From the NCBI GenBank assembly GCA_963736285.1, contig CAVTOA010000003.1, forward strand, positions 925,558 to 989,557: DNA of 64,000 bases, written 5' to 3'. Under the pieces are notes generated by a model. That model was not told where the DNA came from. It searched no databases and worked only from the letters and a program-made list of their open reading frames with translations. Position 1 is the stretch's first letter. Each line of letters begins with the position of its first letter. The position numbers and the translations under genes were made by a program. Below, piece by piece: positions 14,568 through 64,000 of this stretch. Origin of the DNA: an uncultured Acidimicrobiales bacterium (GTDB taxonomy: Bacteria > Actinomycetota > Actinomycetes > Mycobacteriales > QHCE01).

Positions 14568-15507
14568 GGTAGACGACCGTAGCGGATGAGGGGACTCACG
14601 TCCCGCGATGGCGGGTGCTTGTTAACGTGAGCTGTACAGGATGGCCAAGAAATATGGGCAAAGTTCATTTCTCCTTAGGCTCTAACACGAAAGGTTCGAG
14701 ATGCCCACTCTGTCGACGCGCGCTCAACGTTGGAGACGCCTAGGTTCGACCGCAGGGAGAGGTGCGCTGACTGCGCTTCCCCGTGCCGTCGTGGCTGCTG
14801 TCGCAAGTGGCGTGTTTGCGCTGGCGTTTGTGGATCCAGCGAACACGGCGCGCTGGACAATGCCCCTTGGAGTTGGAGCTTCTGTTGTCCTCAATGGCGC
14901 CCGACAGCGGGCTACGGCGGAACGCACCAGCCAGGGCTCAGGTGGACCTACAACTCGGAATCTGAGATGAGCGACCTTGAAACGCGACGGGAATCTCGCT
15001 CGCTAGTTGCAAGAACAGTAGGGAATGTAGCGTGACTGCTGTGCCGAGAAGAGTTGCCATTTCGAGCTTTTCGGTGGGCAACGCTAACCACAGCCGTATA
15101 TCCGCAAGATATGGATATTCAGTGTGACTCACCGCAGCTGCGGTAGCGGTAGCAATCGCTCCCCTGGTGAACAAGAGCGGAGGTCGCAGCAAAAATCGAT
15201 AGACCCGCTGAGCTGCTTGCGAGGTGGTGACAAACGGACGGGTCATCCGTGAGGGAAACTGAGGTCTTTCACCTTGTGTAACGGGCGGGCTCCGAGCCAA
15301 GCCGTCCGTCGTCCATCACAATCTCCAGCTAGGTGGTTGGCAGCTCCCGTGCCGTGGTCGCTACCAAACTACGAGAGCGGTGCAACTGCGGGACTGTTGT
15401 GCTGTTGCGGCAAGTTCTGGGCCCTCCTCTATTGTTCAGCTAGAAGTGGAGTCTCAAAGCCCTGGTTCACATCGCCGGCAACCCGGCTCGAAGACTGCGA
15501 GGAAACA

Positions 15508-18734: not shown

Positions 18735-18858
18735 TTAAACCGCCATGGTTAAGGCACCGGACAGATTGTGTGACCATCACTCATTCCTAGCACATGCTGA
18801 CACCCCACCCACGGGGCGCGATAGCGCCGCCGGCGAGCTCCCTTTGCGCTGTCTTGTC

Positions 18859-19167
18859 TTATTGCGTCACGAAGTGAATTCCGCCGGCCCACCTGGGCGT
18901 TTCCGACGAAGCTGGCGTGGCCCATGGCGGGCCGCGATGCGCTTCAGTGCGGATGTGGGTGCTGGTGGTGTATTCGCTGCGTGTGTCAGCGGTCGCGACG
19001 AACCACTCGGCTGTGGTGCCGTGCGGCAGCGCCGCCATAATGAGACCCATTGCGACTAAGAAGACCGCCGCAAATATCGTTTCTCTGCCGGCTCCGGCCC
19101 GCACAACTTGAGAGCCACCGCGTCCATGTGCCCGTGACATGCTCCCACCCCCGGCGGAAGGTATCAA
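18859..19167 (-). CDS. small secreted/anchored protein with an alternate (SipW/TasA-type-like) signal peptide; possibly truncated
   Basis: Basic N-terminus, hydrophobic core IFAAVFLVAMGLIMAAL, then HGTTAEW resembling the G-T-x-A-x-W end of alternate-type signal peptides. The mature part is only about 50 aa. Confidence 0.3.
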   Translation of the reverse strand: MIPSAGGGSMSRAHGRGGSQVVRAGAGRETIFAAVFLVAMGLIMAALPHGTTAEWFVATADTRSEYTTSTHIRTEAHRGPPWATPASSETPRWAGGIHFVTQ

Positions 19168-19245
19168 AGCCGAAGCGTGAATGGTGTTCGCCGCGCGGTA
19201 AATTAGTCCGATTTGGTACGAATGTCGCCACGTGTACTCGGGCCG

Positions 19246-23527: not shown

Positions 23528-23665
23528 GTGTTCACGATCGTCTTCATGTGTCTGCTCGTTGCGGTGCTCGCCGCCGTCGCGTTTCTAGCTGGCTATGTCG
23601 CGTACAAGCTGTTTCTTCATATGCCAAGACAGCGCTATGACCGCTCTCGCTGGGGGACTCGATGA
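23528..23665 (+). CDS. candidate 45-aa single-TM micro-protein
   Basis: GTG 23528; (M)FTIVFMCLLVAVLAAVAFLAGYVAYKLFLHMPRQRYDRSRWGTR*. Its TGA overlaps the ATG of the next gene (ATGA at 23662-23665). Below the ORF-track cutoff. Confidence 0.3.
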   Translation: MFTIVFMCLLVAVLAAVAFLAGYVAYKLFLHMPRQRYDRSRWGTR

Positions 23666-24237
23666 CCAACAATCCTGGCTATCCTTTTATCGAGACCGAC
23701 GACCTACGAACAGGTCCTGACTTGCACCCCACCTTGCTGGGGCTGTTGCCGTTGGTTGGGCAATGGCGGGGCACGGGTAAGGGCGGGTATCCCAACTCCG
23801 ACGATTTCGAGTTCGCCCAAGAAATCCGTTTCAGTCACGATGGCCGGCCGTTTTTGGCATACGAGTCACGCATGTGGTTAATCGACGATGAGGGTCGTCC
23901 GATCCGTCCGTATGCCCGCGAGACGGGGTGGTGGCGTCCGGCGTTGGCGTCGCTCCAAGATGGAACCGTCCAAGAAGAACGCGACACTAACGAGCTCGAC
24001 GTGTTGGTGACCGACGCGAGCGGTGTCATCGAGCTCTATGCCGGCCAGATCGATGGCACCAAGTTCGAGCTATCGAGCGACTTTGTGGCACGTACCGCCC
24101 GCGCCAGTGAGGTAAGCGCGTTCCATCGGCTCTACGGAATCGTCGAGGGCGACCTGTTGTATGCGGTCGACAAAGCCGCAGATGGCCACCCGCTTACTCC
24201 GCATCTGTCCGCCCGGTTGACCCGCGTTGCCGGCTGA
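23662..24237 (+). CDS. FABP-like/nitrobindin-family beta-barrel protein (Rv0813c-like)
   Basis: LVGQWRGTGKGGYP motif and about 190 aa; synteny next to the Rv0812-like gene. Confidence 0.8.
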   Translation: MTNNPGYPFIETDDLRTGPDLHPTLLGLLPLVGQWRGTGKGGYPNSDDFEFAQEIRFSHDGRPFLAYESRMWLIDDEGRPIRPYARETGWWRPALASLQDGTVQEERDTNELDVLVTDASGVIELYAGQIDGTKFELSSDFVARTARASEVSAFHRLYGIVEGDLLYAVDKAADGHPLTPHLSARLTRVAG

Positions 24238-29812: not shown

Positions 29813-30365
29813 CTAATTCCGATGAACTTTGTGGTTTGATGCTTGCGCTCTCGGGCGGACGACGAGCAGATCGATGTTGACGTGCGCTGGGCGGGTGGCG
29901 GCCCAGGCGATGCACTCTGCGACATCCTCGGCGACTAGCGGTTCCGGAACGCCGGCGTAGACGGCGGTAGCACGTTCTGAGTCACCGGAGAACCGCACCA
30001 GCGAAAACTCCTCTGTCCGCACCCCCGGGGTCAGCATTCTCGATGGGGTCCTGCCCCTTGGCGCCTCCGGCGTTGTTGACCAGCAGCTGGAGGTGGCCCG
30101 GAAGTGCATCAACGGCACGAGCGAAGTCATCGACAGAGTCTTGTTCTGTCACATCCAGGGTGAGCGCGGTGCCGCCTATCTCCGCTGCCATGGCGTCGAG
30201 CCGGTCGCGTCTCCGGGCGCCCACGATGACGTGGAAGCCGTCCGTTGCCAGTCGGCGAGCGGTCGCGGCTCCGATCCCGCTGCTGGCGCCCGTGACGACC
30301 GCGAGGGGCTTTACTGGGGTGTTTTCCGGTTGATGTTCTCGGCTCAGGCTCATAGCAGCTCCCAC
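29813..30365 (-). pseudogene. short-chain dehydrogenase/reductase remnant with internal deletion (Rv0484c-like)
   Basis: The N-part (VTGASSGIG ... NNAGGAKGQDPIENAD) and C-part (PGVRTEEFSLVRFSGD ... HVNIDLLVVRP) lie in different frames and join near 30023-30032. About 70 aa including the catalytic Ser-Tyr-Lys are absent. Span is 553 nt, not a multiple of 3. Confidence 0.7.
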
Positions 30366-30501
30366 TGACCGATTTCGGAGGTAAAGCGGCGAGCCACGTA
30401 GGCCAGTCTGGCTTCGCTGGCTGAGGTTGCCACATGGAAATGCGGTTGCGCCGTTGGGGGTTGATGTCTATCGCGGAAACTGACCGAGGAGAATTACGAC
30501 G

Positions 30502-31782: not shown

Positions 31783-32277
31783 GTGGCAGAGGCTAAGGAA
31801 AGACTCGTCGGCTATCTTGACCAGCTCGGCGCCGATTACGAACGGCAGGGCGACGACCATCTCGTCGTCACGTTGCCGGGGATCGCCAAACAGCAGACCA
31901 TCTGCCATCTGATCGTGGGTGATCATGCGCTACGCATCGAAGCGTTTGTGATGCGCCACCCGGACGAAAACCACCAACAGCTTTACGAGTATGTGCTGCG
32001 TGCCAACGCCCGTATGTATGCGGTGGCGTTCAGTATTGACGCCGCCGGCGATGTGTTCTTGGCCGGGCGAGTTGCGCTGGATTCACTGAGCCTCGAGGAG
32101 CTTGACCGGCTGCTCGGGTCGGTGGCGCAATACGCTGACAGCACCTTTAACCAGCTGCTGACAATTGGCTTCCCGTCCGCCATTCGTCGCGAATGGGCCT
32201 GGCGTGAATCCCGGGGCGAGTCGCTGGCCAACTTGGCCGCCTTCGCCGACTGGGCCCAGGTGCCTGGGCAGCAGTAG
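31783..32277 (+). CDS. YbjN-domain protein (Rv0487-like)
   Basis: 164 aa directly after mshA as in M. tuberculosis. Family assignment from memory. Confidence 0.65.
   Translation: MAEAKERLVGYLDQLGADYERQGDDHLVVTLPGIAKQQTICHLIVGDHALRIEAFVMRHPDENHQQLYEYVLRANARMYAVAFSIDAAGDVFLAGRVALDSLSLEELDRLLGSVAQYADSTFNQLLTIGFPSAIRREWAWRESRGESLANLAAFADWAQVPGQQ
32164..32253. repeat. direct repeat copy A (3' end of the ybjN-like gene)
   Basis: 84/90 identical by hand alignment to 33225-33314. Confidence 0.9.
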
Positions 32278-32383
32278 TGAGGCAAGTCCCGGGTGGCCCG
32301 CACATCCTTGCTTTACCCCTGGCGGCTCCGTAGATTAGGGGTGAGCTGTCCGTACGTTGTACGGACGACAGAGAGGATGGGCG

Positions 32384-32665
32384 ATGACCGCGCCAACTAA
32401 GCGGCTGGAAGTAAGGCTCGATGCTGCGGACAAAAAACTGATTGAGCGAGCCGCACAGCTGCGCCGAGAGACAATGACCGCATTCGTGTTGAGGAATGCT
32501 CGCGAAGCTGCACGTGAGACGCTCCGCCGCGAGCAGGTGACAACTGTGCCTTCCGATTTTTACGACCAGATGATCGCCTCACTCGATGCTCAACCAGCAC
32601 CAAATGGAGCCCTCACTGATGCTGCCCGCCGACTACGCGACTCAGTCGATGGGGGCGGAGAGTGA
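32384..32665 (+). CDS. tacA: DUF1778-family (TacA/AtaR-type RHH) antitoxin
   Basis: TKRLEVRLDAADKKLIERAAQLRRETMTAFV is the DUF1778 pattern. RBS GAGAGGA before ATG 32384. GTGA overlap with the toxin gene. Confidence 0.8.
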   Translation: MTAPTKRLEVRLDAADKKLIERAAQLRRETMTAFVLRNAREAARETLRREQVTTVPSDFYDQMIASLDAQPAPNGALTDAARRLRDSVDGGGE

Positions 32666-33171
32666 GTGCATCGTTCGCCACCACTGCGCTGTCGGGTGTT
32701 CACCGCTTAGATGACTTTGACTGTGGTCAGCCCCAGCTGAACAGTTGGCTTGCTCATTCAGCCCGTCACTCCATGTCTAATAACACCGCCCGCACTTTCG
32801 TGTGGACACCACGGGACGAACGGGAGCGGGTTGTGGCGTATTACTCACTGGCCGGACACGTTATTGAGCGGAGTGCTATGCCAGCCAAGATTGGGCGTGG
32901 GAGTCCGGATTCCTCGCCAGCAGTGCTGTTGGCCCGGCTCGCGGTGGCCAAAAACATGCAAGGCGAAGGGTTGGGCGCGATGCTGCTGGCGGAGGCGCTC
33001 ACTCGGGCGGCTCGTACGGCGCAGATCGTGGCCGCCCGGTTCGTCGTGGTTGATGCCATCGACGAGTCGGCTGCCATGTTTTATGCCAGGTACGGATTCA
33101 CTCGCATTCTCGGCGACAGCCGCCTCTTTCGGAAGATGAGTGACATCGCCCGGGACGTGCTGCAGTTCTGA
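32662..33171 (+). CDS. tacT: GNAT-family acetyltransferase toxin (TacT/AtaT type)
   Basis: 169 aa. GNAT acetyl-CoA loop QGEGLGAMLL; C-terminal FYARYGF. Translationally coupled to the DUF1778 gene. Confidence 0.8.
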   Translation: MSASFATTALSGVHRLDDFDCGQPQLNSWLAHSARHSMSNNTARTFVWTPRDERERVVAYYSLAGHVIERSAMPAKIGRGSPDSSPAVLLARLAVAKNMQGEGLGAMLLAEALTRAARTAQIVAARFVVVDAIDESAAMFYARYGFTRILGDSRLFRKMSDIARDVLQF

Positions 33172-33224
33172 TTCAGACACGAACGGTTTCCCCACGCACC
33201 GAGTACGTTCAAATGCTGTTGATG

Positions 33225-33314
33225 ATTGGCTTCCCGTCCGCCATTCGTCGCGGATTGGCCTGGCGTGAATCCCGCGGCGAGTCGCTGGCAAACCTAGCCG
33301 CCTTCGCCGACTGG
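33225..33314. repeat. direct repeat copy B (orphan duplicate of the ybjN-like 3' end)
   Basis: Translates to GFPSAIRRGLAWRESRGESLANLAAFADW versus GFPSAIRREWAWRESRGESLANLAAFADW in the intact gene. No upstream gene body. Confidence 0.9.
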
Positions 33315-33524
33315 CCTCGGTGCCTGAAGTTGAGTAGCCGGTGGGGCTGGGCAGATAACGACCGTGTGCTCGTCTATTCGGGACAAGTCACCGTAATTAT
33401 CTCGAGGTCGCTAGGTCTGATATCGGACTAACGGGTCGTTCGACATGAGTTACCAACCAGCGAAGGTAAAGTTAGCGGGCGCAAGTTAGGCTGAGGCGAC
33501 GGGCTAAGCGTCAGGAGGTGCGGC

Positions 33525-33767
33525 ATGGCAGCGCGCAATTCGGCAGGTTTCAGTTGGGCGAGAATGCTCACAGCTACTGGCAAAGTTGGAAAAGGAACCA
33601 AAGACATGTGGGACCATGCCGTTGCCGTCCTCACGCGAGGAGGCAAGTGGATGATGGGCTTGGTTATGAAGGCGCGGGCAGTTGCTGAAAAGGCGCAGAC
33701 AACCACCCCACGATCCGGCGAAACGCCCGCTCCTAATGGGCAACACGTAAAAAGAGTAGCTGTCTAG
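33525..33767 (+). CDS. hypothetical small basic protein
   Basis: Strong RBS AGGAGG 6 nt before ATG 33525; 80 aa; no recognisable family. Confidence 0.3.
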   Translation: MAARNSAGFSWARMLTATGKVGKGTKDMWDHAVAVLTRGGKWMMGLVMKARAVAEKAQTTTPRSGETPAPNGQHVKRVAV

Positions 33768-33949
33768 CCTTTCGCTGCGTCTGGCTTGCACGCAGTCGCC
33801 CCCGCTCACAGTTGCCGGTGTACCCCGCGCCGGTGCGCCCGCAATACGAGTGCGTAATAAAGCGGGTTATCGTCCGCCCATGCGCGTCCGTGTGACCGTC
33901 GCCTTGCTGCCACTGCGCAGTGTGCCGTCCCGGCTTATGACTGCCGCCT

Positions 33950-36567: not shown

Positions 36568-36941
36568 ATCGCCGCATCGTCAGTCTTCGGCGTTGAGTCG
36601 CGATTGGCAGTACGAGTTGCTTGGCTATTCGGGTTCATATAGGGAAACCAGTCCTCAAAGACGGGTCGGACTGACAAGCAGGTCAGCATCGTTGTACTGG
36701 CTAGCCATAGTCTCTCGACCGCCGGCCAGCTTTGAAAACAGCCGTAGCCTTAGACGAACGTCAGAAAATCGATACGAGTCGGTTGCGTATCTAAATCGAC
36801 CGTGCCTACCATTGCTGTCGCTGCGCGTATGTAGCGATTGTGAGCGATATTCACTCCAACTGAACGCGGTATTGGCGAACACATCCGTCGGGCGCCGGTG
36901 CGCGCCCTCCTGTCCGAACCCCTGCACGGGAAGTCCCATTT

Positions 36942-50202: not shown

Positions 50203-50457
50203 ATGGCAACTGCTATGCGCCAGGTAACTCTGCTATCGCGCCCCGGTTGTCACCTATGCGACGAAGCGCGGATTGTGGTGGCACGGGTCTGTGGTGCCCT
50301 CGATGATGTTTCGTGGTCGGAAGCCAATGTGGACACAGATCGCCTACTTGCTTACGACTATGGTGACCGCGTCCCAGTGGTGCTGGTGGACGGTGTCGAA
50401 CACGGGTTCTGGCGGGTCGACGAGTCACGTCTCATGGCTGAGCTCCAGAGCGAGTGA
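50203..50457 (+). CDS. glutaredoxin-like protein (DUF836, Rv0508-like)
   Basis: RPGCHLCDEA CxxC motif; about 80 aa. Confidence 0.75.
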   Translation: MATAMRQVTLLSRPGCHLCDEARIVVARVCGALDDVSWSEANVDTDRLLAYDYGDRVPVVLVDGVEHGFWRVDESRLMAELQSE

Positions 50458-50494
50458 GTGCGATGAGGCAGTGCATGCGGAAGGAGCGGTGGCA

Positions 50495-51151
50495 ATGACA
50501 GCTCATGTGGTGTGGGACTGGAATGGCACATTGTTTTCCGATGCGGACGCGGTCTTGGCCGCCACCAATGACACTTTCGCTGCCTTTGGGATACCCGCCC
50601 TATCCGCGCAGGAGTACCGGACACTCTTCGTTCGACCGCTCACGCATTTTTACGCCAAGGTTTTCGGCCGTGCACTTACCACAGTGGAGTTTGGACGGCT
50701 AGACGCGTTATTTCATGACCACTACCTCGCACGTAGCCGTGAATCAGCGCTCGATCCAGACGCACTGCCTACGCTCGCCGAATTTGCCGAGCGGGGCACG
50801 ACGCAGTCGCTGCTGTCGTTGTGGACACATCGCGAGTTAACCGAGCTGGTGGAAAAGTTATCCGTGAAACAATATTTCTGCCGGGTAGACGGTCGGCGGG
50901 GGCACAATATGGTGGGCAAAGCAGAGCCGTTAGCCCGCCATCTCACCGCTCTGGGGCTCTCCTGCGCTGACGTGGTGCTCGTCGGCGATTCTTTAGACGA
51001 TGCCGCAGCGGCGAGGTCGGTAGGCACGCGGTGCGTGCTGTTCGACGGCGGTAGCCATGAGCCCGCCGACTTGGTCAACACCGGCTACCCCGTGGTGGCC
51101 TCGCTCCGCGAAACCGTGCGGCTACTCTCCGGTAATGAGGTTGAGGCGTAA
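50495..51151 (+). CDS. HAD-family hydrolase
   Basis: AAGGAG RBS before ATG 50495. VWDWNGTLF motif I variant; VGDSLDD motif IV. Confidence 0.7.
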   Translation: MTAHVVWDWNGTLFSDADAVLAATNDTFAAFGIPALSAQEYRTLFVRPLTHFYAKVFGRALTTVEFGRLDALFHDHYLARSRESALDPDALPTLAEFAERGTTQSLLSLWTHRELTELVEKLSVKQYFCRVDGRRGHNMVGKAEPLARHLTALGLSCADVVLVGDSLDDAAAARSVGTRCVLFDGGSHEPADLVNTGYPVVASLRETVRLLSGNEVEA

Positions 51152-51313: not shown

Positions 51314-52780
51314 ATGAACGTCCTCGTTATTGGTATTAACCACCGCACCGCCGCGATCAGTTTGCTGGAGCAAGCCGCGGCGGGTACGAGCGACGCCTCC
51401 AACGTGCTCCGTTCGGCGCTGGCGTGTAGCGATGTCACCGAAGCGGTCGTTTTGTCGACGTGTCACCGGGTGGAGATATACGCAGCGGTCACCACGTTCC
51501 ACGGTGCGTTGAGTGAGCTGGGCGCGGTCCTTGCCTCACATGTAGGAACGTCGCTTCCCGACATCGCCGAACACTTATATGCCTATTACGCCGACGAGGC
51601 CGTCTCACACACGATGCGGGTAGCGTCCGGTTTGGACTCGTTGGTTGTCGGCGAACCACAGATTTTGGGGCAGCTACGAGCGGCCTACACCAAAGCTGTT
51701 CAGTCAGACGCCGCGGGCACGTTGCTCCACGAGCTCATACAGCGCGCGCTGCGCGCGGGTAAAAAAGTGCACGCCACCACCGATATCGATCGTCGCGCTC
51801 CTTCCGTCGTTTCTGCCGCGTTAGAGCTAGCATGGCCAGCCCTACAGCCGACATGTGGCGAATGGTCCGAAGTGGACGCGGTCGTTATTGGCGCCGGGTC
51901 TATCGCGGGGGTGGCCACGGCGGCTTTGCGGCGAGCTGGCGTTACCCGGATAACAGTCGTCAACCGCACATTCAACCGGGCTCAGCAGCTGGTAGAAAGT
52001 GCTGCTCAGGTTGGTCAGGGAGCGCGGTTTTCAGCGCGGCCATGGTCGGCTTTGCCGGAGCTTCTGGCAACGAGTGACCTAGCGATTTGCGGTACTGGCG
52101 CACAGGAACCCGTGCTGACTCTCGAACACTTTGCCCCACCGCTGTCCAGGCCGTTGGTCGTCTGCGACGTCGCCCTGCCGCGTGATACTGATCGTGCCGT
52201 CGATGAGTTGTCAGGTGTCACCGTCATCGATATGGAACAGCTCACGCGGGCATTGGCCACGCAAGACGAGCGGACCGCAGCAGCCGACTTGGGTGATCAG
52301 CGTGATCAGGCGACGCCATCGCTTTCGAGCCCGTCAACGAATGCGGATGTCGACGCGGCGGAACGCATTGTGGCCGAAGAAGCCGCCGAGTTCATCGCGT
52401 GGCAGCAAGCCATGGGAGTGGCGCCGACAGTTGCCGCATTGCGAGCCAGGGCGCAGACGATCGTGGCGGGTGAATTCGCTGCGCTGGATGGCCGTCTGCC
52501 GGCTCTGACAGCAGAGGAACGTTCCGAAGTGGAACGAACTGTGCACCGCATCGTCAACAAACTATTGCACGCACCTACTGTGCGCATGAAAGAACTTGCG
52601 GCCACACCTGGAGGGGACCGATACGCCGACGTTATGCGGGAGCTTTTTTCGCTGGACGAGGGCGCATCCGACGCCGATTCATCAAACAGCACCGCGACGG
52701 TGCCGCCGGCGGGTCAACAAGTACCCGGCTTGGGCGTGATCGGGAGTCAGGTAGTGGCGGCGTTGGAGGCCAACTCATGA
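51314..52780 (+). CDS. hemA: glutamyl-tRNA reductase
   Basis: LSTCHRVEIY catalytic-Cys motif (canonical TCNR; here His replaces Asn), VIGAGSIAG, LLHAPTVRMKE. ATGA overlap with hemC. Confidence 0.9.
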   Translation: MNVLVIGINHRTAAISLLEQAAAGTSDASNVLRSALACSDVTEAVVLSTCHRVEIYAAVTTFHGALSELGAVLASHVGTSLPDIAEHLYAYYADEAVSHTMRVASGLDSLVVGEPQILGQLRAAYTKAVQSDAAGTLLHELIQRALRAGKKVHATTDIDRRAPSVVSAALELAWPALQPTCGEWSEVDAVVIGAGSIAGVATAALRRAGVTRITVVNRTFNRAQQLVESAAQVGQGARFSARPWSALPELLATSDLAICGTGAQEPVLTLEHFAPPLSRPLVVCDVALPRDTDRAVDELSGVTVIDMEQLTRALATQDERTAAADLGDQRDQATPSLSSPSTNADVDAAERIVAEEAAEFIAWQQAMGVAPTVAALRARAQTIVAGEFAALDGRLPALTAEERSEVERTVHRIVNKLLHAPTVRMKELAATPGGDRYADVMRELFSLDEGASDADSSNSTATVPPAGQQVPGLGVIGSQVVAALEANS

Positions 52781-53728
52781 CTTCGGGCAATACCCCATCG
52801 CCATTGCGTCTGGGGACGCGTGGCAGTGCGCTGGCATTAGCGCAGTCACAACAGATCGCTGATGCGATACGTGAGTCCTCTGGCCGCGATGTGGAGCTGG
52901 TGCACGTATCGACCGCAGGCGATCGGTCTAGTGCCCCGATTCCGCAGCTAGCGACGAACCCTGGCGTTTTTGTCTCCGCTCTTCGCGATGCCTTAGCTCG
53001 CTGGTGAGGTCGATATCGCGGTCCACTCCTATAAAGATTTGCCCACCGCGCCTGTACCTGGTGTTTCGCTCGCGGCGGTGCCACTACGGGAAGATCCACG
53101 AGACGTATTGGTGAGCCTCGGGAACGTGCCGCTACGCGAGCTCGCCGCCGGAGCGCGAGTGGGCACGGGCGCACCGCGTCGGGTGGCACAAGTGCTCGCC
53201 GTGCGGCCGGATCTGACCTGCGTTCCCGTGCGTGGCAATGTCGACACTCGGCTAGGTCGCGTTCGCGAAGGCGACCTTGACGGCGTGGTTTTGGCGTATG
53301 CCGGGCTGGCTCGACTCGGCCGGGCCAACGACCTGAGCGAGGCGCTCGACCCGGAGGTCATGCTGCCTGCGCCTGCCCAAGGCGCACTTGCGGTGGAATG
53401 CCGATCATCCGATTCTGAACTTCACGATGTGCTCGCAGCCCTTGACGACCCTCTTACCAGAGTGGCGGTCACGGCTGAGCGAGCGATGCTCTCCACATTG
53501 GAGGCCGGTTGCGCTGCGCCGGTCGGTGCCTATACCGAAGTCTGCGATGTCTTCGGTGAGGCGCATCTTCACCTACACGGAGCGGTGATCGCCACCGATG
53601 GCGGTCGCGCCATTCGGCGCTCGCTCTCCATTCCACTGCACGATGCGGCTTCTCGCTCCGATCAGCTTGGCCAGCGGCTCGCCGCTGAGCTGCTGTCTGC
53701 GGGCGCTGCCGCCCTAATGGGGGTTTAA
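52777..53728 (+). pseudogene. hemC: porphobilinogen deaminase with apparent +1 frameshift
   Basis: Frame 1 ends ...LRDALARW* (TGA 53005-53007). The next frame reads GEVDIAVHSYKDLPTAPVPGVSLAAVPLREDPRDVLV onward to 53728. There is one extra base near 53002. Confidence 0.8.
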
Positions 53729-53733
53729 CTCAC

Positions 53734-55317
53734 ATGACTCGCCGAAAGTCCGTTGGCCGCATCACAATTCTGGGCGCAGGGCCTGGTGATCCCGGCCTGT
53801 TGACGAGCCGTGCGCTGGCCGCACTTGCGACGGCAGAATTGCTCGTTGCTGATCCTGCTTTGCCCGGGCCACTGGTGGACGCCGTCACGGAGTGCCGCAC
53901 CAGCCGAGGCCGAGTTTGTGATGGCCGAAGGTGAACCGAGCGAGGTGGCTAAGGCATTGCTCGCCGGGGCGCGGGCGAGCCGGATGGTAGTTCGGTTGGT
54001 GCACGGCGACCCCTTCACCAACGCAGACGTCATCACAGAGGTGCAGGCGCTAGCCAAGACGACGGTGCCATTCGAGGTACTCCCGGGCATTAGCCATGCG
54101 GCTGGCGTTTCTACTTACGCGGGTACGCCGCTGGGAGAGATCCGCACCATGGTCGATGTCGTCGATGTCGCGGCGATAGATTTCCCGGCGCTAGTGACCG
54201 CGCCAGGTTCGCTAGTTCTTACCGTGACGGCCTCAGAGCTTGCGGCCGTGCGCGACGGCCTACTCAAAGCCGGTATGGACAAAGACATCCAGGTCAGTGT
54301 GACTGGTGAAGGCACGAGTGACATCCAGTCCACCTCGGTGTCGACATTGGATGCCTTGGTCGATGTGGCTGTGGGGCTTTTTGGGCGCCTGGTCGTCACT
54401 ATTGGCGATGCGGTTGCTTTGCGGCCCAAGCTTGGCTGGTGGGAGTCCCGTCCGCTGTTTGGTTGGAAGGTGTTGGTTCCTCGCACCAAGGAACAAGCTG
54501 GTGCGATGAGCGCTGGACTGCGTGAATGGGGCGCCATCCCAACCGAGGTTCCGACCATCGCCGTCGAGCCGCCGCGAACCCCAGCGCAGATGGAGCGCGC
54601 CATCAAGGGCCTCGTCGACGGACGCTATGCCTGGGTGGTGTTTACCTCCGCCAATGCTGTCCGCGCCATTTGGGAAAAGTTTGAGGAACATGGCCTGGAT
54701 GCTCGCCACTTTGGTGGGGTCAAAATCGCTTGCATCGGCGAAGCAACCGCAGACGCGGTCCGCGCCTTCGGTATCCACCCGGAGCTGCTGCCCGAGCATG
54801 AGCAGTCCAGTGTGGGGCTGCTTGAGAGCTTCCCGCCGTTCGACAGCGTGCTGGACCCGATCAACCGCGTGCTGCTGCCACGAGCGGACATCGCCACAGA
54901 GACGCTCGCTGCCGGGCTAGTTGAGCGGGCTGGGAGGTCGACGACGTCACCGCCTACCGCACGGTGCGGGCGGCGCCGCCGCCCGCCGAGATTCGGGACG
55001 CCATCAAGTCGGGCGGGTTCGATGCGGTGCTGTTTACCTCGTCGTCGACGGTGCGCAACTTGGTCGGGATTGCCGGCAAGCCTCACGCCCGTACGGTCAT
55101 CTCCTGCATCGGGCCGAAGACCGCCGAGACCGCCCAAGAGCTGGGGCTGCGGGTGGACGTGCAGCCGGAGAGCGCTGACGTGCCCTCGCTGGTGAGGGTC
55201 TTGGCCGATTACGCGGTGGAGCTCGCGAGAGAAGATGGCCAACATGACGACAAAGCCGCGCCGTGGGCGCGAAGATCCAGGGCCCGACCGCTGGCGCCAC
55301 GGAAGAGCCCTTTCTAG
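53734..55317 (+). pseudogene. hemD: bifunctional uroporphyrinogen-III C-methyltransferase / uroporphyrinogen-III synthase with two apparent frameshifts
   Basis: ILGAGPGDPGLLT start. First break near 53893 (...LVDAVTE / AAPAEAEFVMAEG...). Second break near 54929 in a G-run (...LVER / GWEVDDVTAYRTVRAAPPPAEIRDAIKSGGFDAVLFTSSSTVRNLVG...). Matches remembered Rv0511 across all three frames. Confidence 0.8.
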
Positions 55318-55418
55318 CGCCCAAAGTAGCTAAGAGGCGAGGTTGGTTGGTGGGCTCGGCTTCTGCGGAGTCAGCCAACCAATTTCCGTGATATCGTCTG
55401 CTATCGCGGAGGTGTTTG

Positions 55419-55640
55419 ATGAGTAATGTGCTGGTGCGAGATATCCCGCAAAATGTACTTGCCGCGCTCGATGCGCATGCTGCCCGCTGTGGCATTTCCC
55501 GTAATGAGTACATTCGTCGGCGGCTGGCGCAGGATGTCGCGACTATGTGTGCTCCCGTTTCGGTAGCGGATCTGCGTGGTTTTTCTGCGGCCTTTTCTGA
55601 TTTGGCCGACACGTCAGTGATGAACGAGGCATGGAAGTGA
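55419..55640 (+). CDS. vapB: RHH (FitA/Arc-like) VapB-type antitoxin
   Basis: [46 protein letters not shown]. 3' end overlaps the PIN gene. Confidence 0.7.
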
Positions 55641-56041
55641 GCGACTGGTTGATCGACAAGTCGGCGTTGGTCCGACTGGGTGACAGCTCGGATGCGGCTG
55701 AGTGGGCTAATCGGATAGAGCGTGGGCTAGTGCGGATCGCAACCGTGACGCGGCTTGAGGTCGGCTACTCTGCTCGTTCGGCGTTGCGGGCCCGGGCCGC
55801 TTTTCAAACTCCGCCACTGTCGGTGATGCCGGTGGAGTACGTCACTCCGACCATTGAGGATCGTGCTGTGGAGGTCCAACTGCTGTTAGCGGAGCAGGGT
55901 CAGCATCACGCCCCATCGATCCCTGATTTGATCATTGCCGCGACTGCCGAGCTGGCCGGGATCACGGTTCTTCATGTGGACAAGGACTTCGATCTCATCG
56001 CAGGTCTGACAAGGCAGCCAGTCGAGCGACTGCACATATAG
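55631..56041 (+). CDS. vapC: PIN-domain VapC-type toxin
   Basis: N-terminal LIDKSAL acidic site, later [25 protein letters not shown]; 136 aa. Confidence 0.8.
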
Positions 56042-56506
56042 ACACGTTGCAAGGCACCCATCGGACAGGAGTCGATGCGCCCTGGCGATGTTGTTTAGAA
56101 GCTGGGCCCCCGGTGTTGGTGCGGTTATGTGAGATTTTCCGCGACCGAAGCCCGATGCAGACTGAATATGACGAGTCAGATGTGGAGCGTCGGATCCGAG
56201 GTATGGGTGCTGAGTGATACGGTGCCAAGCCCGCTACGGTGACGCATACTGGCGCCTATGCGGCATGCGGGCTCGATCCTGTGCGTCCACGGAATGGTTT
56301 GGATGAAGTCCTCTGCCACGGTGGGCACGCACGGTCGGTCGGCCAGGTCTCCCAGGGCGTCGCGCCCGGTTAAAGCTGAGGGAGCGACGGGTCGTAAGTG
56401 GGGTCTTGGTAGAGGTCCGGGTGGCGTCTGAGCAGCGAGGTACGGGCCAATCCACAACAGCTTTGCCAATGTCGGGCGAATTGTCCGAAAACAAGTGGGC
56501 GGCGAG

Positions 56507-59429
56507 CTAGCAGTGGCTCCCGCTCACCGCGACGACCGTGCGCGAGAAGCCCACGATGTCGATGCCATCGTCGCTGACTACGGCCGTAACCGTATCGGCA
56601 TAGGTCTCGCCTAGAGACTTGAACTCTCCACTGGGGTAGGCGGCGCCGGGATGTATGTAGTAGATATAGCCCTCGGTGCTTCACATGAGTTGCCGTCAGC
56701 GTTTTCCGACGAGTTGGAGGCGTGCTCTTTCTCTGTCACGCTGAAGGTGACCACCGAGCTTCCGCCACTTAAGTACACGGCATTCGCATTGCTACCGGCC
56801 GAGAACTGGATCCGCACGAAAATGTGGTTGATCGCGTAGTTGGTGAGGTCGCCCTGGTTCTTTTCGACCAAATCACTGGTGTTCTTGCCAGGCTTGAATT
56901 CCTTGTCATTTTTGCCATTGAGATAGTCGGCATAGCGCTGAGAAAGATTGGAGACAATTATTTGTTGTCGTTGCCGGTCTTCTTGGGACGGCGGCTTAGC
57001 GAACCCATCGCTGTCAGTAGGTATGGGTGTGGTCATCTTGTTGTCGTACTGCACGCCGATCAGGGTCGCTTTCCAGATCTCTTGTGCGGACGTGCGAGCA
57101 AACGCGATAGTGAGGTAGTAGTTGCCGTCGGCATTGTCAGTGACGTGTCCAAATGCGACGAACGTGGCGGGGAACTTATACTGTCGCGCCACCGCGACTC
57201 TGTCGACAGTGAGCGGGAGTTTGTTGACCGCCGGACGATCTTCTTGCTCAAGTCCTAGCTCGCTCGCCTGTTTGGTGGCCGGACCAGCCGTGTGGCTCGC
57301 GTAGCTGTCGTTTTGCACGGTCCCCCAGAATTGAACGAAAACCGTCTTGGCTTCGCTAGGGGTGATGATCTCTTTCGCTTCTGCGCGCGGTGTGGCTTGG
57401 GCGATGACAGCGGTCGCGGTGACGACCGTTGCAACCGCCGCTCCGGCGACGATCTTCAGCGCCGTTCCAAGCTTGCCCACGGTGGACGCGGTGGCGGCGC
57501 TACTGCTGGCAGTTGTGGTGCTCGCACCGGTGGCGCCTACTGCACCACTGCTAGTGACGCCCATGCCAGTCCCGCCGGCAACGGTCGCCCCGGACCCCGT
57601 GCCGACACCTGATGCCACCGCGGTGCCCGGCGCGATACTCGCTCCCGCCGCGGGCGTCGCCGCGGCGCCGGCCGTCGCGCCCGCCCCAGCTCCCGCGCCG
57701 AGGGCCCCGGCGGCCCCAGTCACGCTGGTGAGGATCGCCGATACTGCTCCACTCAAAGCGGAACGAGCGCCCCATTCGGAGCCGTAGGCGGTGATCGCGG
57801 CGTCTTCTAGCGCTGCCAGGAACGCATTGGTGTCGGGGTAGCGCAGCATGGGGTCTTTGACGGTCGCGGTGGCGACGACAGCTGCCAGCGCTGGGTGCAC
57901 ATTGTCGGTGATGGCCAGATCGGGCGGCGGCATGTGGAGATGCGCGTCCAAGGTGGACCGAATGGTGGGGCCGGTAAATATTTTGCGGCCGGTTAGCAGT
58001 TCCGCCAGGATCACCCCGCAGGCGTAAATATCGCTGCGGGGGTTAAGCGGCTGGTCGGTAATTTGCTCGGGGCTCATGTACGACGGCGAGCCCTCAACAT
58101 CGCCCCCGGTCACCGCGCCAGGGCGCACTAGTCCGTAGTCGATCAGCCGAGAGACACCATGGAGGTCCACCAGAATGTTGTCCGGTTTGACGTCCCGGTG
58201 CACCAGGCCATGCTCGTGAATATGGCCGAGCCCATGGAGTGCGCCACGAAGAACCCCAAGCGCTTGCTCGCCGGTCAACCGTCGGTAGGTGCGCAGCAGC
58301 TGTCGAAGCGTGACACCCTCGACAAGTTCCGTGACGATGGTGATTTGGCCTGGTACGGAGAGAAAGTCCAATAGCGGCACACAGTTGGGGTGCGAAAGCC
58401 GCCGCATCAACTCTGCCTCGGCGAAGAAGCGGTGCACGAAATTCATGTCACGGCATAGCTCGGGGCTGAGGACTTTGAGCGCCACGGCCCGACCGTTGAG
58501 CGGGTCAATGGCGCGGAAAGTAGTGCCGCTAGCCCCCTTACCCAGGACCGCTTGTAGCTGGTAACGGCCAATGACGGCGCCGGCAGGCAGCGCCTTATAA
58601 GGACTCTTCGCCACTGTGACGCGGCCACGACGGAACGACAACAGCGTCAGGGCCGCAAATGCGATGGCCACGATCGGCGAGAGCAGATAGCCCCAGCTGT
58701 TAGTGGTGGCGAAGGTGCCGGACTCGTACAGCACAAACGCCTCGCCGAACCCAGCAATCGCTCCTAACAGGAACGCGATCACCGCTTTGGCCGCCCTAGG
58801 CCCACGGCGTCGTCGCGCAACGAAGACCCCCACGACGCTGCCCGCCAGGGCCAGCAAAAAGCCACCTGCGCCGAAGAAGGTCGTGAGCGGATGCCGGGTG
58901 GTTTGCACGGTGAGGCTTAGGTCGCATGTGGAGCTGTGTGCGTCTACGCCGACGCGCCGCACCGCATTGTCGGGTGCGGTGAACGGGCCATTGACGGATC
59001 GCGTTCGAGTTTTGCTGGAGGTCTCGGAAGTCTGAGAGGACTTGCTGGTCGTGACGCCGAGAGTCGTCGTGGTCATGGTCTGGTCGGTGCCGACACTTTT
59101 GGTGGACTCAACCATGACCACTAGGTGACTGCCCGGTTTGACCTGCCAGATGTCTTGGTCTGTGAGGCGAACCGCTTTGGCTTTGCCCGTCACACCTTTT
59201 TTGCTGAGCTCTGCGGCTGCGTCGCGCGCTGACTTGCTGAGGATGCGCTGTAGCCGGTCACCGTGCAACCACCAGTGGTGCCGGCGTTGGCTTGCCCTGC
59301 GAGAGGTAACGAAAGCAGGAGCCCGCCCGCTATGCCGAGCCCAACGGTGAGCCAGCGGCGCCAATGTGGTGACACCGCACGGTTGCGCCTGGACGGAAAA
59401 ATGGCACGGCGGCGGGGATGTGACAGCAC
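56507..59429 (-). pseudogene. Hanks-type Ser/Thr protein kinase with signal peptide / ectodomain / 3 TM / kinase / TM / ectodomain layout; two apparent frameshifts
   Basis: GKGASG...VALKV, HRDVKPDN, DYG and SPE motifs. N-terminal signal-like piece is in ORF 59190-59429 (frame change near 59230). The C-terminal 54 aa (STEGYIYYIHPGAAYPSGEFKSLGETYADTVTAVVSDDGIDIVGFSRTVVAVSGSHC*) lie in another frame with high GC3, ending at TAG 56507 (frame change near 56668). Confidence 0.7.
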
Positions 59430-59587
59430 GAGTTGAGCCTAATCCGTGAGTACTGTGCACATTTGAGTACCCGTGGAATCTGTGGCGCACTGTTATCAAC
59501 CGCGTGGGACAAACCATAACGTCTACCGCATGTAGACCCCTGCGGCTAACTGGCTGCGGGCCAGGTAAAGTCCGCAAGGTGAGAAAT

Positions 59588-60667
59588 GTGGACACCGCAG
59601 CCTCGTATTCATCGATCTCGTCCGAGACGGGGTCTTCCGGCCTCAGTAGCATTTGTCCCGGTTTGCCGGGGGACAGGCGCGGACCTTCTGGGAGCTTTCC
59701 CACGGTTCGTCCTCGACGATTGCGCCGAACCGAGCCATTGCGGCGGCTCGTTGCGGAGACTCGGCTGCACCCAGCTGAGCTGGTGTTGCCTCTCTTTATT
59801 AAAGAAGGCCTGACCGAGCCACGGGACATCTCGAGCCTGCCCGGTGTGCAACAGCACAGCATGGATTCATTGCGACGGGCAGCAGCCGAGGCGGTCGCGG
59901 CCGGTGTCGGGGGCCTCATGCTTTTCGGTGTTCCGGCAGAGCGCGATGCGGTCGGCAGCGCGGGCACAGACACTCATGGGGTGTTGCAGCGCGCCATCGC
60001 GGGCGTGGTGCAGGAGGTAGGCGCGGATACGGTCGTCATGAGCGACCTGTGCCTCGACGAATTTACCGACCACAGTCACTGCGGCGTCCTTACTAAGACC
60101 GGCGAGGTCGACAACGACGCGACCCTGCTGCGCTATGCCGAAATGGCAGTAATCCAAGCCGATGCTGGGGCGCACGTGGTGGGCACCTCCGGAATGATGG
60201 ACGGCCAGGTTGGGGTAGTGCGGGCAGCTCTCGATGCCGCAGGCCACACCGACACGGTCGTCCTTGCTTATGCCGCCAAATATGCCTCGGGGTGCTACGG
60301 GCCATTCCGTGAAGCAGTCGAGTCGACATTGCAGGGCGACCGCAAGACCTATCAGCAGGACCCCCCCAACGCGCGGGAGGCGCTACGCGAGGTTGCGTTG
60401 GATCTCGCCGAGGGCGCTGACATCGTCATGATCAAGCCAGCATTGCCCTATTTGGACATTGTCCGGACCGTCGCTGATGCGGTGGACGTGCCGGTCGCCG
60501 CGTATCACGTGTCTGGCGAATACGCGATGGTGGAGGCGGCCGCAGCCAACGGCTGGATCGACCGCGACTGGGTCATTGACGAGTCGCTCACCAGCATCAA
60601 ACGCGCCGGCGCCAACATCATCCTCACTTACTGGGCTACTGAGGTTGCTCAACGACTGAACGGCTAA
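59588..60667 (+). CDS. hemB: porphobilinogen synthase (ALA dehydratase)
   Basis: [16 protein letters not shown]-terminus, [10 protein letters not shown] and YHVSGEYAM active-site regions. GTG 59588 after AAGGTGAG. C7 run at 60361-60367. Confidence 0.9.
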
Positions 60668-60676
60668 CGCGGAGCA

Positions 60677-61985
60677 ATGGCTATCACCGACACTTCTCAC
60701 GACGCTTCTCAGCAGTGGTTCTCTCGGGCACAAGAGGTCATTCCGGGCGGAGTGAACTCGCCCGTGCGGGCGTTCGGCGCGGTCGGCGGCGTTCCCCGGT
60801 TTTTCGCCCGCGGCGAGGGACCCTATCTGTTTGATGTGGACGGTCACCGTTACGTCGACCTCGTCTGCTCCTGGGGTCCGCTGATACTGGGGCATGCGTA
60901 CCCCGCGGTGGTAACCGCATTGCTCGAAGCCGCAGTTCGTGGCACATCTTTTGGTGCTCCTAGCCCAGCCGAGGTAGAGCTGGCGGAAGAGATACAGCGC
61001 CGAGTCGCCCCCGTCGAGCAGGTTCGGTTGGTCGAACTCTGGCACCGAGGCAACGATGAGCGCTATTCGATTGGCGCGGGGTTTCACAGGTCGCAGCAGG
61101 GTAGTGAAGTTCGCGGGTTGTTACCACGGACATGTCGACGCGCTATTAGCCAATGCTGGCTCAGGAGTGCTCACCTTCGGCTTGCCAGACTCGCCAGGTG
61201 TAACCCGTGCGACCGCCGCCGAGACTCTGGTGTTGCCCTACAACGACATCGACGCGGTGCACGCGGCCTTCGCCGAGCACGGTGACGACATCGCTTGTGT
61301 CATCACCGAAGCGGTGCCGGCAAACATGGGTGTGGTGCCGCCACTGCCGGGCTTCAACCAGGCACTACGCGATATCTGCCATGCCCACGGCGCACTGTTC
61401 ATTGTGGACGAAGTCCTCACCGGTTTCCGACTGTCGCCGGCTGGCTGGTTCGGCGTCGAAGGTGTGGCCGGCGACCTCTTTACCTTTGGAAAAGTAATGG
61501 GCGGTGGGTTGCCCGCCGCCGCTTTCGGTGGCCGGGCAGACGTAATGGCGCAGCTCGCTCCCGCCGGTCCGGTGTATCAAGCAGGCACGCTGTCCGGAAA
61601 CCCGCTGGCCTGTGCTGCCGGGCTGGCCACGTTGCAGCAGGCGACGCCCGCCGTCTACGACAAGCTCGACAACGCCGCCGATGTGCTGGTCACAGGGGTG
61701 GCTCGCGCGTTGGCGGAGGCGGGGGTGGCGCACCATATCCCTCGGGCCGGCAATCTCTTCAGCGTTTTCTTCGGCGACAACGGCCAACACGATGCCCCTC
61801 GATTCGCCGCTTTCTTCCATGCCATGCTGGACCAAGGCGTCTACCTGCCCCCGAGCGGTTTCGAAGCCTGGTTTGTGTCCGCCGCCCACGATGACGAAGC
61901 ACTGGAACACATTCTTGCGGCATTGCCGCGGGCTGCCCGAGCTGCGGCAGCGGTAGAGGCAGAGCCATCGGCGGCTACCTCGTAG
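60677..61985 (+). pseudogene. hemL: glutamate-1-semialdehyde 2,1-aminomutase with apparent +1 frameshift
   Basis: [10 protein letters not shown] in frame 1 up to ...VEQVRLV. The next frame reads [33 protein letters not shown] ... FGKVMGGG. There is one extra base near 61034. Confidence 0.8.
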
Positions 61986-62033: not shown

Positions 62034-62690
62034 ATGAGTCAACCGGTTCGCACAGTTGTCCACGTGATCCGTCATGGCGAAGTGCACAACCCGAACGGCA
62101 TTTTGTACGGCACCGCGCCCGGTTTTGTCCTGTCTGCTCGCGGTGAACAGATGGCATCTGCGGCAGCGAACTATCTAGCTGGATGCGACATCCAAGCAGT
62201 GGTGGCGAGCCCACTGGAACGAGCCCAACAGACCGCCTACCCCGTGGCGTCACAACAGGGCTTGCCGATCGCCACAGACGAACGACTCATCGAAGCATGG
62301 AATTTCTTTGCCGGGCGCACGGTCACCCGCAGCGACCTGTACCGGCATTTCTACAAGCTGTACAACCCATTCCGGCCCTCATGGGGCGAGCCTTACCGTC
62401 ATATCGCGGCCCGGATGACGGCAGCGGTCGCCAACCTGCGCCGCCATGCGGCAGGCCGGGAGGCAGTGGTCGTGAGCCATCAGCTTCCTATATGGACGCT
62501 GCGGCTATCGCTACAAGGCAGGCGGCTGTGGCACGATCCGCGAAACCGAGAATGCGCCCTCGGCAGCATTACCTCGCTCCGGTTCGACGACGACAAACTG
62601 GCGTGGGTCGACTACCACGTTCCCGCGCCGGAGTTGGTAGCCGCGGCGCTAGCCGAGGACCAAGAAAAGAAACGCCTGGTGAAACGATGA
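62034..62690 (+). CDS. histidine phosphatase family protein (Rv0525-like)
   Basis: VIRHGEVHNP RHG motif; 218 aa. Confidence 0.8.
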   Translation: MSQPVRTVVHVIRHGEVHNPNGILYGTAPGFVLSARGEQMASAAANYLAGCDIQAVVASPLERAQQTAYPVASQQGLPIATDERLIEAWNFFAGRTVTRSDLYRHFYKLYNPFRPSWGEPYRHIAARMTAAVANLRRHAAGREAVVVSHQLPIWTLRLSLQGRRLWHDPRNRECALGSITSLRFDDDKLAWVDYHVPAPELVAAALAEDQEKKRLVKR

Positions 62691-62844: not shown

Positions 62845-63420
62845 ATGAAGAGGTCTTGGCTTGCTGGTTTGGTGGCGGTGTTGGTTTTTGCTGGTGGGTG
62901 TAGCGCGGGTTCGGACTCAGTGGACCAACAAGCGGGTGGCGAAAATCGCTATGTGGCCGGCGACGGCACGGTGTCCCGGTATTCAGTGGGGAAGCGCCCT
63001 GCGGCGCCACAAGTCTCTGGCTCCCTATTGGACGGAAAGAAGTTTGATTTAGCCAAATACCGCGGCAAGGTAGTGGTGTTCAACTTTTGGGGAGAATGGT
63101 GCGCACCCTGCCGAGCTGAGGCGCACAATCTCGAACAGGTTTACACAGCGACTAAAGACAGCGGAGTGCGGTTCATCGGTGTGAATGTGCGCGATTCCCG
63201 AGATCGAGCCAAAGCATTCGAACACTCCTACGGCATTACTTATCCGAGTATTTTCGATCCCGACGGTCGGGTAGCGCTTACCTTTCGAAAGACCCCGCCT
63301 AATTCAATTCCGTCGACCATCGTGATTGACCGAAAAGGTCGAGTCGCCGCAGTGTTCCGCAAAGCTCTTCTTACGGAAGATTTGCAGCCAGTAGTGGAGC
63401 AGGTCACCAAAGAAAAATAA
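62845..63420 (+). CDS. TlpA/ResA-family thiol-disulfide oxidoreductase lipoprotein (Rv0526-like)
   Basis: Lipobox FAGGC after a signal peptide; WGEWCAPCRAE thioredoxin motif. Confidence 0.85.
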   Translation: MKRSWLAGLVAVLVFAGGCSAGSDSVDQQAGGENRYVAGDGTVSRYSVGKRPAAPQVSGSLLDGKKFDLAKYRGKVVVFNFWGEWCAPCRAEAHNLEQVYTATKDSGVRFIGVNVRDSRDRAKAFEHSYGITYPSIFDPDGRVALTFRKTPPNSIPSTIVIDRKGRVAAVFRKALLTEDLQPVVEQVTKEK

Positions 63421-63427
63421 AACTTGT

Positions 63428-63697
63428 TTAGATGTCCCGCCAAGGTGATTCCGTTTCCGCGCGGGCTGCGGCGGTGACCTCCGTCGCGGAGACTTTAGCT
63501 CGTTCAGGGCGATTGGCTGCCCGCTGCAACACCTCGGCAACCGTGAGTCGAATGCCTTGTTGAACAATGACATCCATTTCTTCTGCACTAGTGGCGTCAC
63601 CATCAGAAATGGGTTTTTTGACTTCGGCTAGCCGGCGTTGATCTTTGAAATTGAGGAGAAGTAACAACGTTTCGATCACCGTTGCCATGCTAACCAT
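63428..63697 (-). CDS. hypothetical small protein
   Basis: ORF 63428-63769 trimmed to ATG 63697, because the longer version runs into the palindrome. No recognisable family. Confidence 0.25.
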   Translation of the reverse strand: MVSMATVIETLLLLLNFKDQRRLAEVKKPISDGDATSAEEMDVIVQQGIRLTVAEVLQRAANRPERAKVSATEVTAAARAETESPWRDI

Positions 63698-63701
63698 TTT
63701 G

Positions 63702-63757
63702 TTTTTTGCGGATTGCCCGCAAATTTTGCGGCAAAAATTGCGGGCAATCCGCAAAAA
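63702..63757. repeat. nested near-perfect palindrome, family copy 2
   Basis: TTTTTTGCGGATTGCCCGCAAATTTTGCGGCAAAAATTGCGGGCAATCCGCAAAAA: one mismatch from perfect symmetry. Same 17-nt arm as 40137-40153. Confidence 0.95.
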
Positions 63758-64000
63758 GCGGGCAGGCACCCTGGGGTGAGGGCCAGCGAGAGTTCGTTGA
63801 CTCGACGAACCCGCAGCTCAGACGTGCATACGACCGGTACGTTGGTGGAGGTGCTTCTCTGAAGCATAGGATTCTGTTACCGACAATTGGTTGCGCATGA
63901 TGGCGGCTCAGCGAAGTTAGCGGGGGTTGAGGTGTCCTCGGGTGCGTCGGGTGGTGGCGCAGCGGGTGCGTAGTCGTTGGTTGACGGGGTTGCGGAAACC

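Follow-up and report, generated by a model that had tools for sequence, protein, structure and literature searches.

A 64-kb stretch of DNA from an uncultured actinobacterium (contig CAVTOA010000003.1 of assembly GCA_963736285.1, referred to here as the window) carries five early genes of tetrapyrrole synthesis, hemA, hemC, cysG/hemD, hemB and hemL, on the forward strand between positions 51314 and 61985. Alignment with intact orthologues showed hemC, cysG/hemD and hemL to be putative frameshift pseudogenes that together contain six single-nucleotide insertions or deletions (indels), five of them +1 and one -1, and hemA and hemB are each open in one frame, as judged from the open reading frame (ORF) listing and from Pfam. 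It is likely that tetrapyrrole synthesis was recently abandoned in this lineage, and that the ancestral cluster is in an early stage of decay through ordinary small indels.

The window represents 64 kb of at least 1.5 Mb, its proteins being found on a contig of 1,497,830 bp. Two relatives with intact and syntenic clusters served as yardsticks for the breaks: an uncultured actinobacterium with a 2.33-Mb contig (L044) and Cryptosporangium aurantiacum (L045). Breaks were mapped using tblastn with the proteins of L044 and L045 together with nucleotide alignments against both. An extracytoplasmic function (ECF) sigma factor, DUF5667 and Glrx precede hemACDB in all three sequences, and hemL, His_Phos and Redoxin follow in the same order; the broken cluster therefore lies at a conserved syntenic position and would appear to be the ancestral copy. 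No close relative of the organism was found in the database. The nearest PurL proteins, from Cryptosporangium and uncultured 'Mycobacteriales', are 76-77% identical and group closest to the window lineage, which does not group with acI, and the top database identities of HemA and HemC are 49% and 66%. Since the best PurL match is this distant, the organism belongs to an undescribed, deep-branching lineage.

Frame changes in hemC, cysG/hemD and hemL

The hemC gene (hydroxymethylbilane synthase, 52777-53728), whose start overlaps the hemA stop (ATGA), contains a +1 change at approximately 52995 that leads to a premature stop at 53005-53007. The cysG/hemD fusion (TP_methylase plus HEM4, 53734-55317), identified from Pfam and the alignments, contains four indels: +1 at 53887, -1 at 54927/8 (G4 to G3), +1 at approximately 55224/5, and +1 at approximately 55265 (GG to GGG). 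The last two are in the basic C-terminal tail, which first matches the relatives in frame 2 over REKMANMTTKPRR and continues in frame 3 as GAKIQGPTAGA. A single +1 (G) at 61034 interrupts hemL (glutamate-1-semialdehyde 2,1-aminomutase, 60677-61985). Pfam domains were split accordingly: PF01379 of hemC into positions 1-64 (in 52777-53007) and 78-206 (in 53039-53728), PF00590 of cysG/hemD into 1-35 and 60-210, HEM4 into 2-141 and 154-230, and PF00202 of hemL into 10-91 and 99-403, in each case over separate ORFs. At the points where the window genes change frame the L044 and L045 orthologues are uninterrupted, and the changes appear as 1-nt gaps within continuous homology. All remaining alignment gaps in hemC, hemD, hemL and hemB have lengths divisible by three; the one exception is a 10-nt gap at 55296, where the end of the hemD tail cannot be aligned. 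The hemC gene call in the source record is a 200-amino acid fragment, and the window is therefore true to the deposited assembly. Separately, HemC has a private LATNPGVF at 52945-52965 where the relatives read LGGTGVF.

An earlier note, made from the sequence alone, had reported breaks in the same three genes, and each was recovered within a few bases of where it had been placed. The four sites that it listed (about 53002, 53893, 54929 and 61034) are all present, at approximately 52995, 53887, 54927/8 and 61034, but the total is six, the sites at approximately 55224/5 and 55265 having been missed. The comparison with orthologues that the note proposed defined each break against the intact, syntenic clusters of L044 and L045. 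The note also held that homopolymer errors could undo its reading; the six sites are not long homopolymers, being either non-repetitive or runs of 2-4 nt, and no motif common to all six, such as would accompany a methylation-motif error, was seen.

The changes of frame are confined to these genes. No frame change was found in 49 other genes (44.4 kb), based on full-length Pfam coverage for ORFs between 0 and 51 kb, on single-frame tblastn matches to the genes of relatives for proC, an HTH_17 gene, an epimerase, an acyltransferase, HAD, DUF5667, the sigma factor, Glrx, His_Phos and Redoxin, and on single-frame matches of purS, purQ, purL, purF and purM, which were compared against L046. If six indels were placed uniformly over the 50.8 kb of checked coding DNA, the probability that all would land in hemC, hemD and hemL is P = 1.9e-7. 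Of the 160 homopolymer runs of at least 5 nt in the window (33 of at least 6 nt), none breaks a checked reading frame; unbroken examples are the C7 run in hemB, a T7 run in a DinG-like gene, and G6/C6 runs in purL and purQ. Because the indels are confined to three hem genes and none is in a long homopolymer, random or homopolymer-type assembly error is very unlikely as their source.

The types of change were compared with mutation-accumulation lines of Mycobacterium smegmatis, in which 856 substitutions, 141 insertions and 66 deletions were recorded (PMC4938668). On this spectrum, at least five insertions among six indels are expected with P = 0.38, and six indels correspond to about 25 substitutions in 3.8 kb. 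No nonsense mutation was seen in the broken hem genes. The 5:1 excess of insertions and the lack of nonsense codons are consistent with the spectrum of an actinobacterium lacking mismatch repair.

Age of the damage and the state of hemA and hemB

Removal of one base restored a HemC that scored 295 bits on TIGR00212 (cut-off 164), and frame-restored HemL scored 581 bits on TIGR00713 (cut-off 527). Frame-restored HemD reached 119.7 bits on NF004593, compared with 117.4 for the intact protein of L044 and 117.5 for that of L045; it falls below the single-domain cut-offs, as do those intact fusions. Departures from invariant columns, which were defined from sets of 7-23 homologues out of the fetched loci, were found at 0 of 43 positions in HemB, 1 of 43 in HemC, 2 of 58 in HemD and 1 of 69 in HemL, all within the range of intact sequences. 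The HemC cofactor Cys (EAGCAAPVG), the pyridoxal phosphate lysine of HemL (FGKVMGGG) and the HemB lysines are retained. Branch-length ratios, calculated as the window's branch over the L044-L045 distance, were 1.1 for hemA, 0.7 for hemC, 1.3 for hemD and 0.6 for hemB, with PurL (approximately 1.1) and Glrx (1.4) as controls. The idea that selection on the hem genes has been relaxed for a long time was rejected, as these ratios are not above those of the controls, and GC content at third codon positions (GC3) was rejected as a sign of decay, the hem genes lying within the range of the window save for one patch in hemD. Since the restored products reach equivalog or orthologue scores, invariant residues are kept and branches are not elongated, inactivation appears to be recent relative to the long branch. 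The scores of the restored proteins also bear out the view of the earlier note that these are recent single-base indels in otherwise recognisable enzymes and not divergent genes.

The glutamyl-tRNA reductase (GluTR) gene hemA (51314-52780) encodes 488 amino acids with full Pfam GlutR_N, Shikimate_DH and GlutR_dimer domains, and its product scored 477 bits on NCBIfam NF000744 (cut-off 429). It aligned with the L044 and L045 proteins in a single frame over its whole length with 48% identity, and has a 21-residue insertion in the linker ahead of the dimerisation domain. The possibility of hidden, compensated frameshifts was rejected, as there is one continuous frame and no match in an alternative frame. 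HemA departs from 6 of 93 columns that are highly conserved among its 119 nearest homologues, mostly conservatively, which suggests a long branch and not decay. Beside the catalytic Cys it carries TCHR in place of TCNR, and the Asn at this position is invariant among the same 119 homologues. A total of 17 GluTR genes that carry TCHR, in genomes of actinomycetes, Chloroflexota and archaea, came up in a search with the TCHRVEIY pattern itself, and for many of these, including all four actinomycete genes, homologues of hemC, hemD, hemB or hemL are found at the same loci; a scan of species-representative genomes with HemA yielded distant loci alone, at no more than 40% identity. Because 17 GluTR genes share TCHR, many of them alongside other hem homologues, it is a natural variant and not a lesion.

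The porphobilinogen synthase gene hemB lies in an ORF that is open from 59504, with GTG at 59588 as the probable start (59588-60667). Its product covers positions 2-316 of 317 of the ALAD profile, scored 455 bits on NF006762 (cut-off 297), and is 75-77% identical to its relatives, with which it shares a Cys-to-Asp variant of the metal site. In the region 60029-60075 a private Gly to Ser change gives DHSHCG, where 17 of the 21 compared sequences have HGHCG. The earlier note had described both hemA and hemB as uninterrupted and had pointed to a C7 run in hemB; both observations hold, the run being at 60361-60367 and in frame. The TCHR motif that it had singled out in HemA is likewise there, but given the 17 other genes it is not an anomaly.

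The reason that two of the five genes are open is most likely chance, hemA and hemB simply not having been hit yet. We give little credence to the alternative that selection keeps them open, either for a truncated branch whose porphobilinogen is passed to a partner that finishes the tetrapyrrole or for a role of GluTR and ALAD outside heme synthesis. Such a branch would run from Glu-tRNA to glutamate-1-semialdehyde, then by a slow, HemL-free conversion to 5-aminolevulinate, and on to porphobilinogen. If it were true, an undescribed actinobacterium with a reduced genome would share one pathway with a partner.

Explanations for the broken frames

One part of hemD differs from the rest of the cluster in composition. 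Over approximately 500 nt (54770-55260, about 165 codons) GC3 is about 0.88, compared with a window mean of 0.69 (standard deviation 0.09), a level reached by 1% of 30-codon windows elsewhere. Nucleotide identity of this patch to L044 and L045 is 82-89%, versus about 60-70% for the rest of the gene, and L044 and L045 are 87-94% identical to each other across it. An origin as a chimera or by horizontal transfer was rejected, as the patch is equally conserved in the three taxa, is no nearer to either relative and gives no hint of a donor; it may reflect constraint at the nucleotide level or a patch of recombination.

Several observations weigh against recent decay. All six indels rest on one consensus sequence from a single assembly, and consensus error could likewise produce six indels while creating no stop by substitution and sparing nearly all conserved residues. 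Three of the four hemD indels are in or at the edge of the high-GC3 patch, which may mean that the consensus is faulty there. If all five genes were evolving neutrally together, the probability that hemA and hemB would both lack an indel is P = 0.047 (0.079 with the first hit excluded). Two other genes hint that heme is still used. One is an intact nitrobindin-type (THAP4) heme-binding beta-barrel gene (23662-24237; Pfam 168 bits), which scored 100 bits on the NCBIfam peroxynitrite isomerase model against a cut-off of 225. The other is a TlpA/ResA-like thiol-disulfide oxidoreductase gene with a WCAPC motif (62845-63420, +) downstream of hemL, which is intact, as the earlier note had said; it has 56% identity to its L044 orthologue and a ResA subfamily score under the cut-off.

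The first two of these points, together with the excess of +1 changes (five of six) and the fact that the related long contigs are long-read metagenome assemblies, could be explained if the genes were intact and the six indels had arisen during assembly or polishing, for instance through mis-recruitment of relatives' reads onto conserved stretches such as the 3' part of hemD. We regard this as unlikely. Uniform errors would strike hemC, hemD and hemL alone with the low probability given above (P = 1.9e-7 over 50.8 kb), and the 160 homopolymers of at least 5 nt, which are the usual sites of long-read error, break none of the checked frames. The purL gene is equally conserved as a protein (76% to relatives) and has no indels, and hemA, hemB, a vapBC-like pair and a kinase gene are all clean although they are interleaved with the broken genes. 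Furthermore, the hemC site, the first hemD site and the hemL site are in stretches of ordinary GC3, although the last is within a locally conserved motif. It is very unlikely that the pseudogenes are real but redundant, with intact copies of hemC, hemD and hemL or a second cluster elsewhere sustaining synthesis: the 64 kb in view of at least 1.5 Mb leave room for such copies and there is no positive evidence for them, whereas the broken cluster occupies the ancestral syntenic position, the best 120 HemC matches include no other from the 1,497,830-bp contig, and duplicate housekeeping pathways would not be expected in so small a genome. Expression of the broken genes through programmed ribosomal frameshifting or transcriptional slippage can be given almost no weight, since each of six separate sites would need it, none has an X XXY YYZ slippery heptamer or a prfB-type motif, the L044 and L045 orthologues are read in one frame with none of the shifts, and in hemC the homology changes frame 9 nt ahead of the stop.

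Under the reading of recent abandonment, selection on de novo tetrapyrrole synthesis would have been lost recently in a lineage under genome reduction, after which small insertions and deletions would have piled up at the normal mutational rate in neutral decay. With its four indels, hemD was probably the first gene to go. The HemC and HemD steps are predicted to be lost; loss of HemL by itself would be leaky. The cell may now import heme or porphyrin, or it may have dropped heme-dependent functions. No heme uptake genes were recognised among the Pfam annotations of the window, and the late-pathway genes hemE, hemY/G, hemH and chdC would lie outside it.

Surrounding genes and comparison with known systems

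The gap between hemD and hemB is approximately 4.2 kb (55318-59587), whereas it is about 100 bp in L044 and L045. This insert, which parts hemB and hemL from hemA, hemC and hemD, consists of a vapBC-like pair and a minus-strand kinase gene. The vapB-like gene (55416-55640, +) encodes a ribbon-helix-helix antitoxin with a FitA-like match, and the adjoining ORF (55631-56041, +) is a candidate PIN-type vapC-like toxin gene, assigned by reading the translation and with no NCBIfam match. The membrane Ser/Thr protein kinase gene (56611-59115, -) has several predicted N-terminal membrane segments, a Pkinase domain at ORF residues 471-677, an Ala/Gly-rich linker, and about 370 C-terminal amino acids forming a domain for which no family match was found. 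Its ORF of 1120 codons (56611-59973, -) runs antisense across the 5' end of hemB; the upstream extension probably stays open by accident, the DNA being GC-rich, and the likely start is the ATG at 59115 or 59076.

In L044 (9192-10004) and L045 (9163-9957) rex is located directly upstream of hemA. In the window this position is taken by an ORF for a HAD-family hydrolase (50273-51151), and no match to rex was found across the 64 kb. The 4.2-kb insert and the missing rex are consistent with an operon that is no longer maintained. On the other side of the cluster, an intact histidine-phosphatase family gene (62034-62690, +) is syntenic with the relatives, and synteny stops past the TlpA/ResA-like gene. 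The redoxin gene of L044 is overlapped by ccdA. The window has no ccdA in the sequence that remains past its redoxin gene (63421-64000), where GC content falls to 0.57 and a small minus-strand ORF (63428-63697) has a perfect 27-nt palindrome (63703-63757) ahead of it.

Other signs of flux were found in the window. A short-chain dehydrogenase remnant (29985-30467, -) between murB and a GT4 gene matches adh_short positions 3-94 of 195, with 185 bp left before murB, and is a deletion-type pseudogene whose decay is independent of that of the hem cluster. A tacA-like antitoxin and GNAT toxin pair (32345-33171) lies between the two copies of a 100-nt direct repeat (32154-32253 and 33215-33314), which are 91% identical. 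The upstream copy, at 32154-32253, forms the 3' end of a ybjN-like gene, which suggests that the module inserted with duplication. Coding density is about 84%, with several gaps of 0.5-0.8 kb. No convincing ORF, tRNA or Rfam match was found in 14568-15273, 18735-19245, 33172-33949, 36568-36941 or 56042-56610 (0.4-0.8 kb), and tRNA and Rfam scans of the whole window gave no matches. These ORF-poor stretches may be the remains of lost genes.

Streptomyces species have the arrangement rex-hemACD, and in Mycobacterium tuberculosis the order is hemA-hemC-hemD-hemB, followed at a distance by hemL, a phosphatase gene, a thioredoxin-like gene and ccdA. The window resembles this actinobacterial arrangement in its gene order, the cysG-like/HEM4 fusion, the overlap between the hemA stop and hemC start, and the Glrx, ECF sigma, His_Phos and Redoxin flanks, but differs in that rex is not upstream, hemD and hemB are separated by the insert of approximately 4.2 kb, ccdA does not follow the redoxin gene, and three genes are frameshifted. 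Pathogens and symbionts provide well-documented cases of lost heme synthesis, and the genome of Mycobacterium leprae is rich in pseudogenes. 'Streptomyces philanthi' is an actinobacterial symbiont with incipient genome erosion, and frameshift pseudogenes are a typical feature of such eroding genomes in actinobacteria (PMC8092579). To that extent the window is comparable to both organisms, as relaxed selection has left pseudogenes that can still be recognised in these high-GC actinobacteria. Decay in the window is sparse in comparison: of about 58 genes it affects 4, and most of it falls in one pathway.

Heme auxotrophy with a need for exogenous heme has been reported in small-genome Actinobacteria of the acI/Nanopelagicales and Actinomarinales by Kim et al., who describe loss of the de novo heme pathway as widespread in uncultivated lineages, and supplementation with hemin or catalase was key to culturing acI bacteria (10.1101/2021.01.11.426183). 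The assertion in the earlier note that such a loss would be unusual in the order is consequently a weak one, given the undescribed lineage and the auxotrophy documented in other small-genome actinobacteria. The organism studied here resembles acI and Actinomarinales as a small-genome actinobacterium with a putatively broken de novo heme pathway. In those groups the enzymes are simply missing, whereas here five early genes are recognisable at the ancestral locus, two of them open and the others with single-base breaks. This would represent a much earlier stage, and auxotrophy, which was shown in those groups, is here only predicted from the genes. What is new is the early stage of loss and the undescribed lineage, heme-pathway loss itself being already known, and the finding reveals no new mechanism. 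If the indels are real, the cluster provides a dated snapshot of an essential cofactor pathway being dropped while its catalytic residues are untouched. The organism would then probably be dependent on a host or community, and its predicted dependence on external heme or porphyrin, or alternatively a heme-free physiology, would be useful in attempts to culture it.

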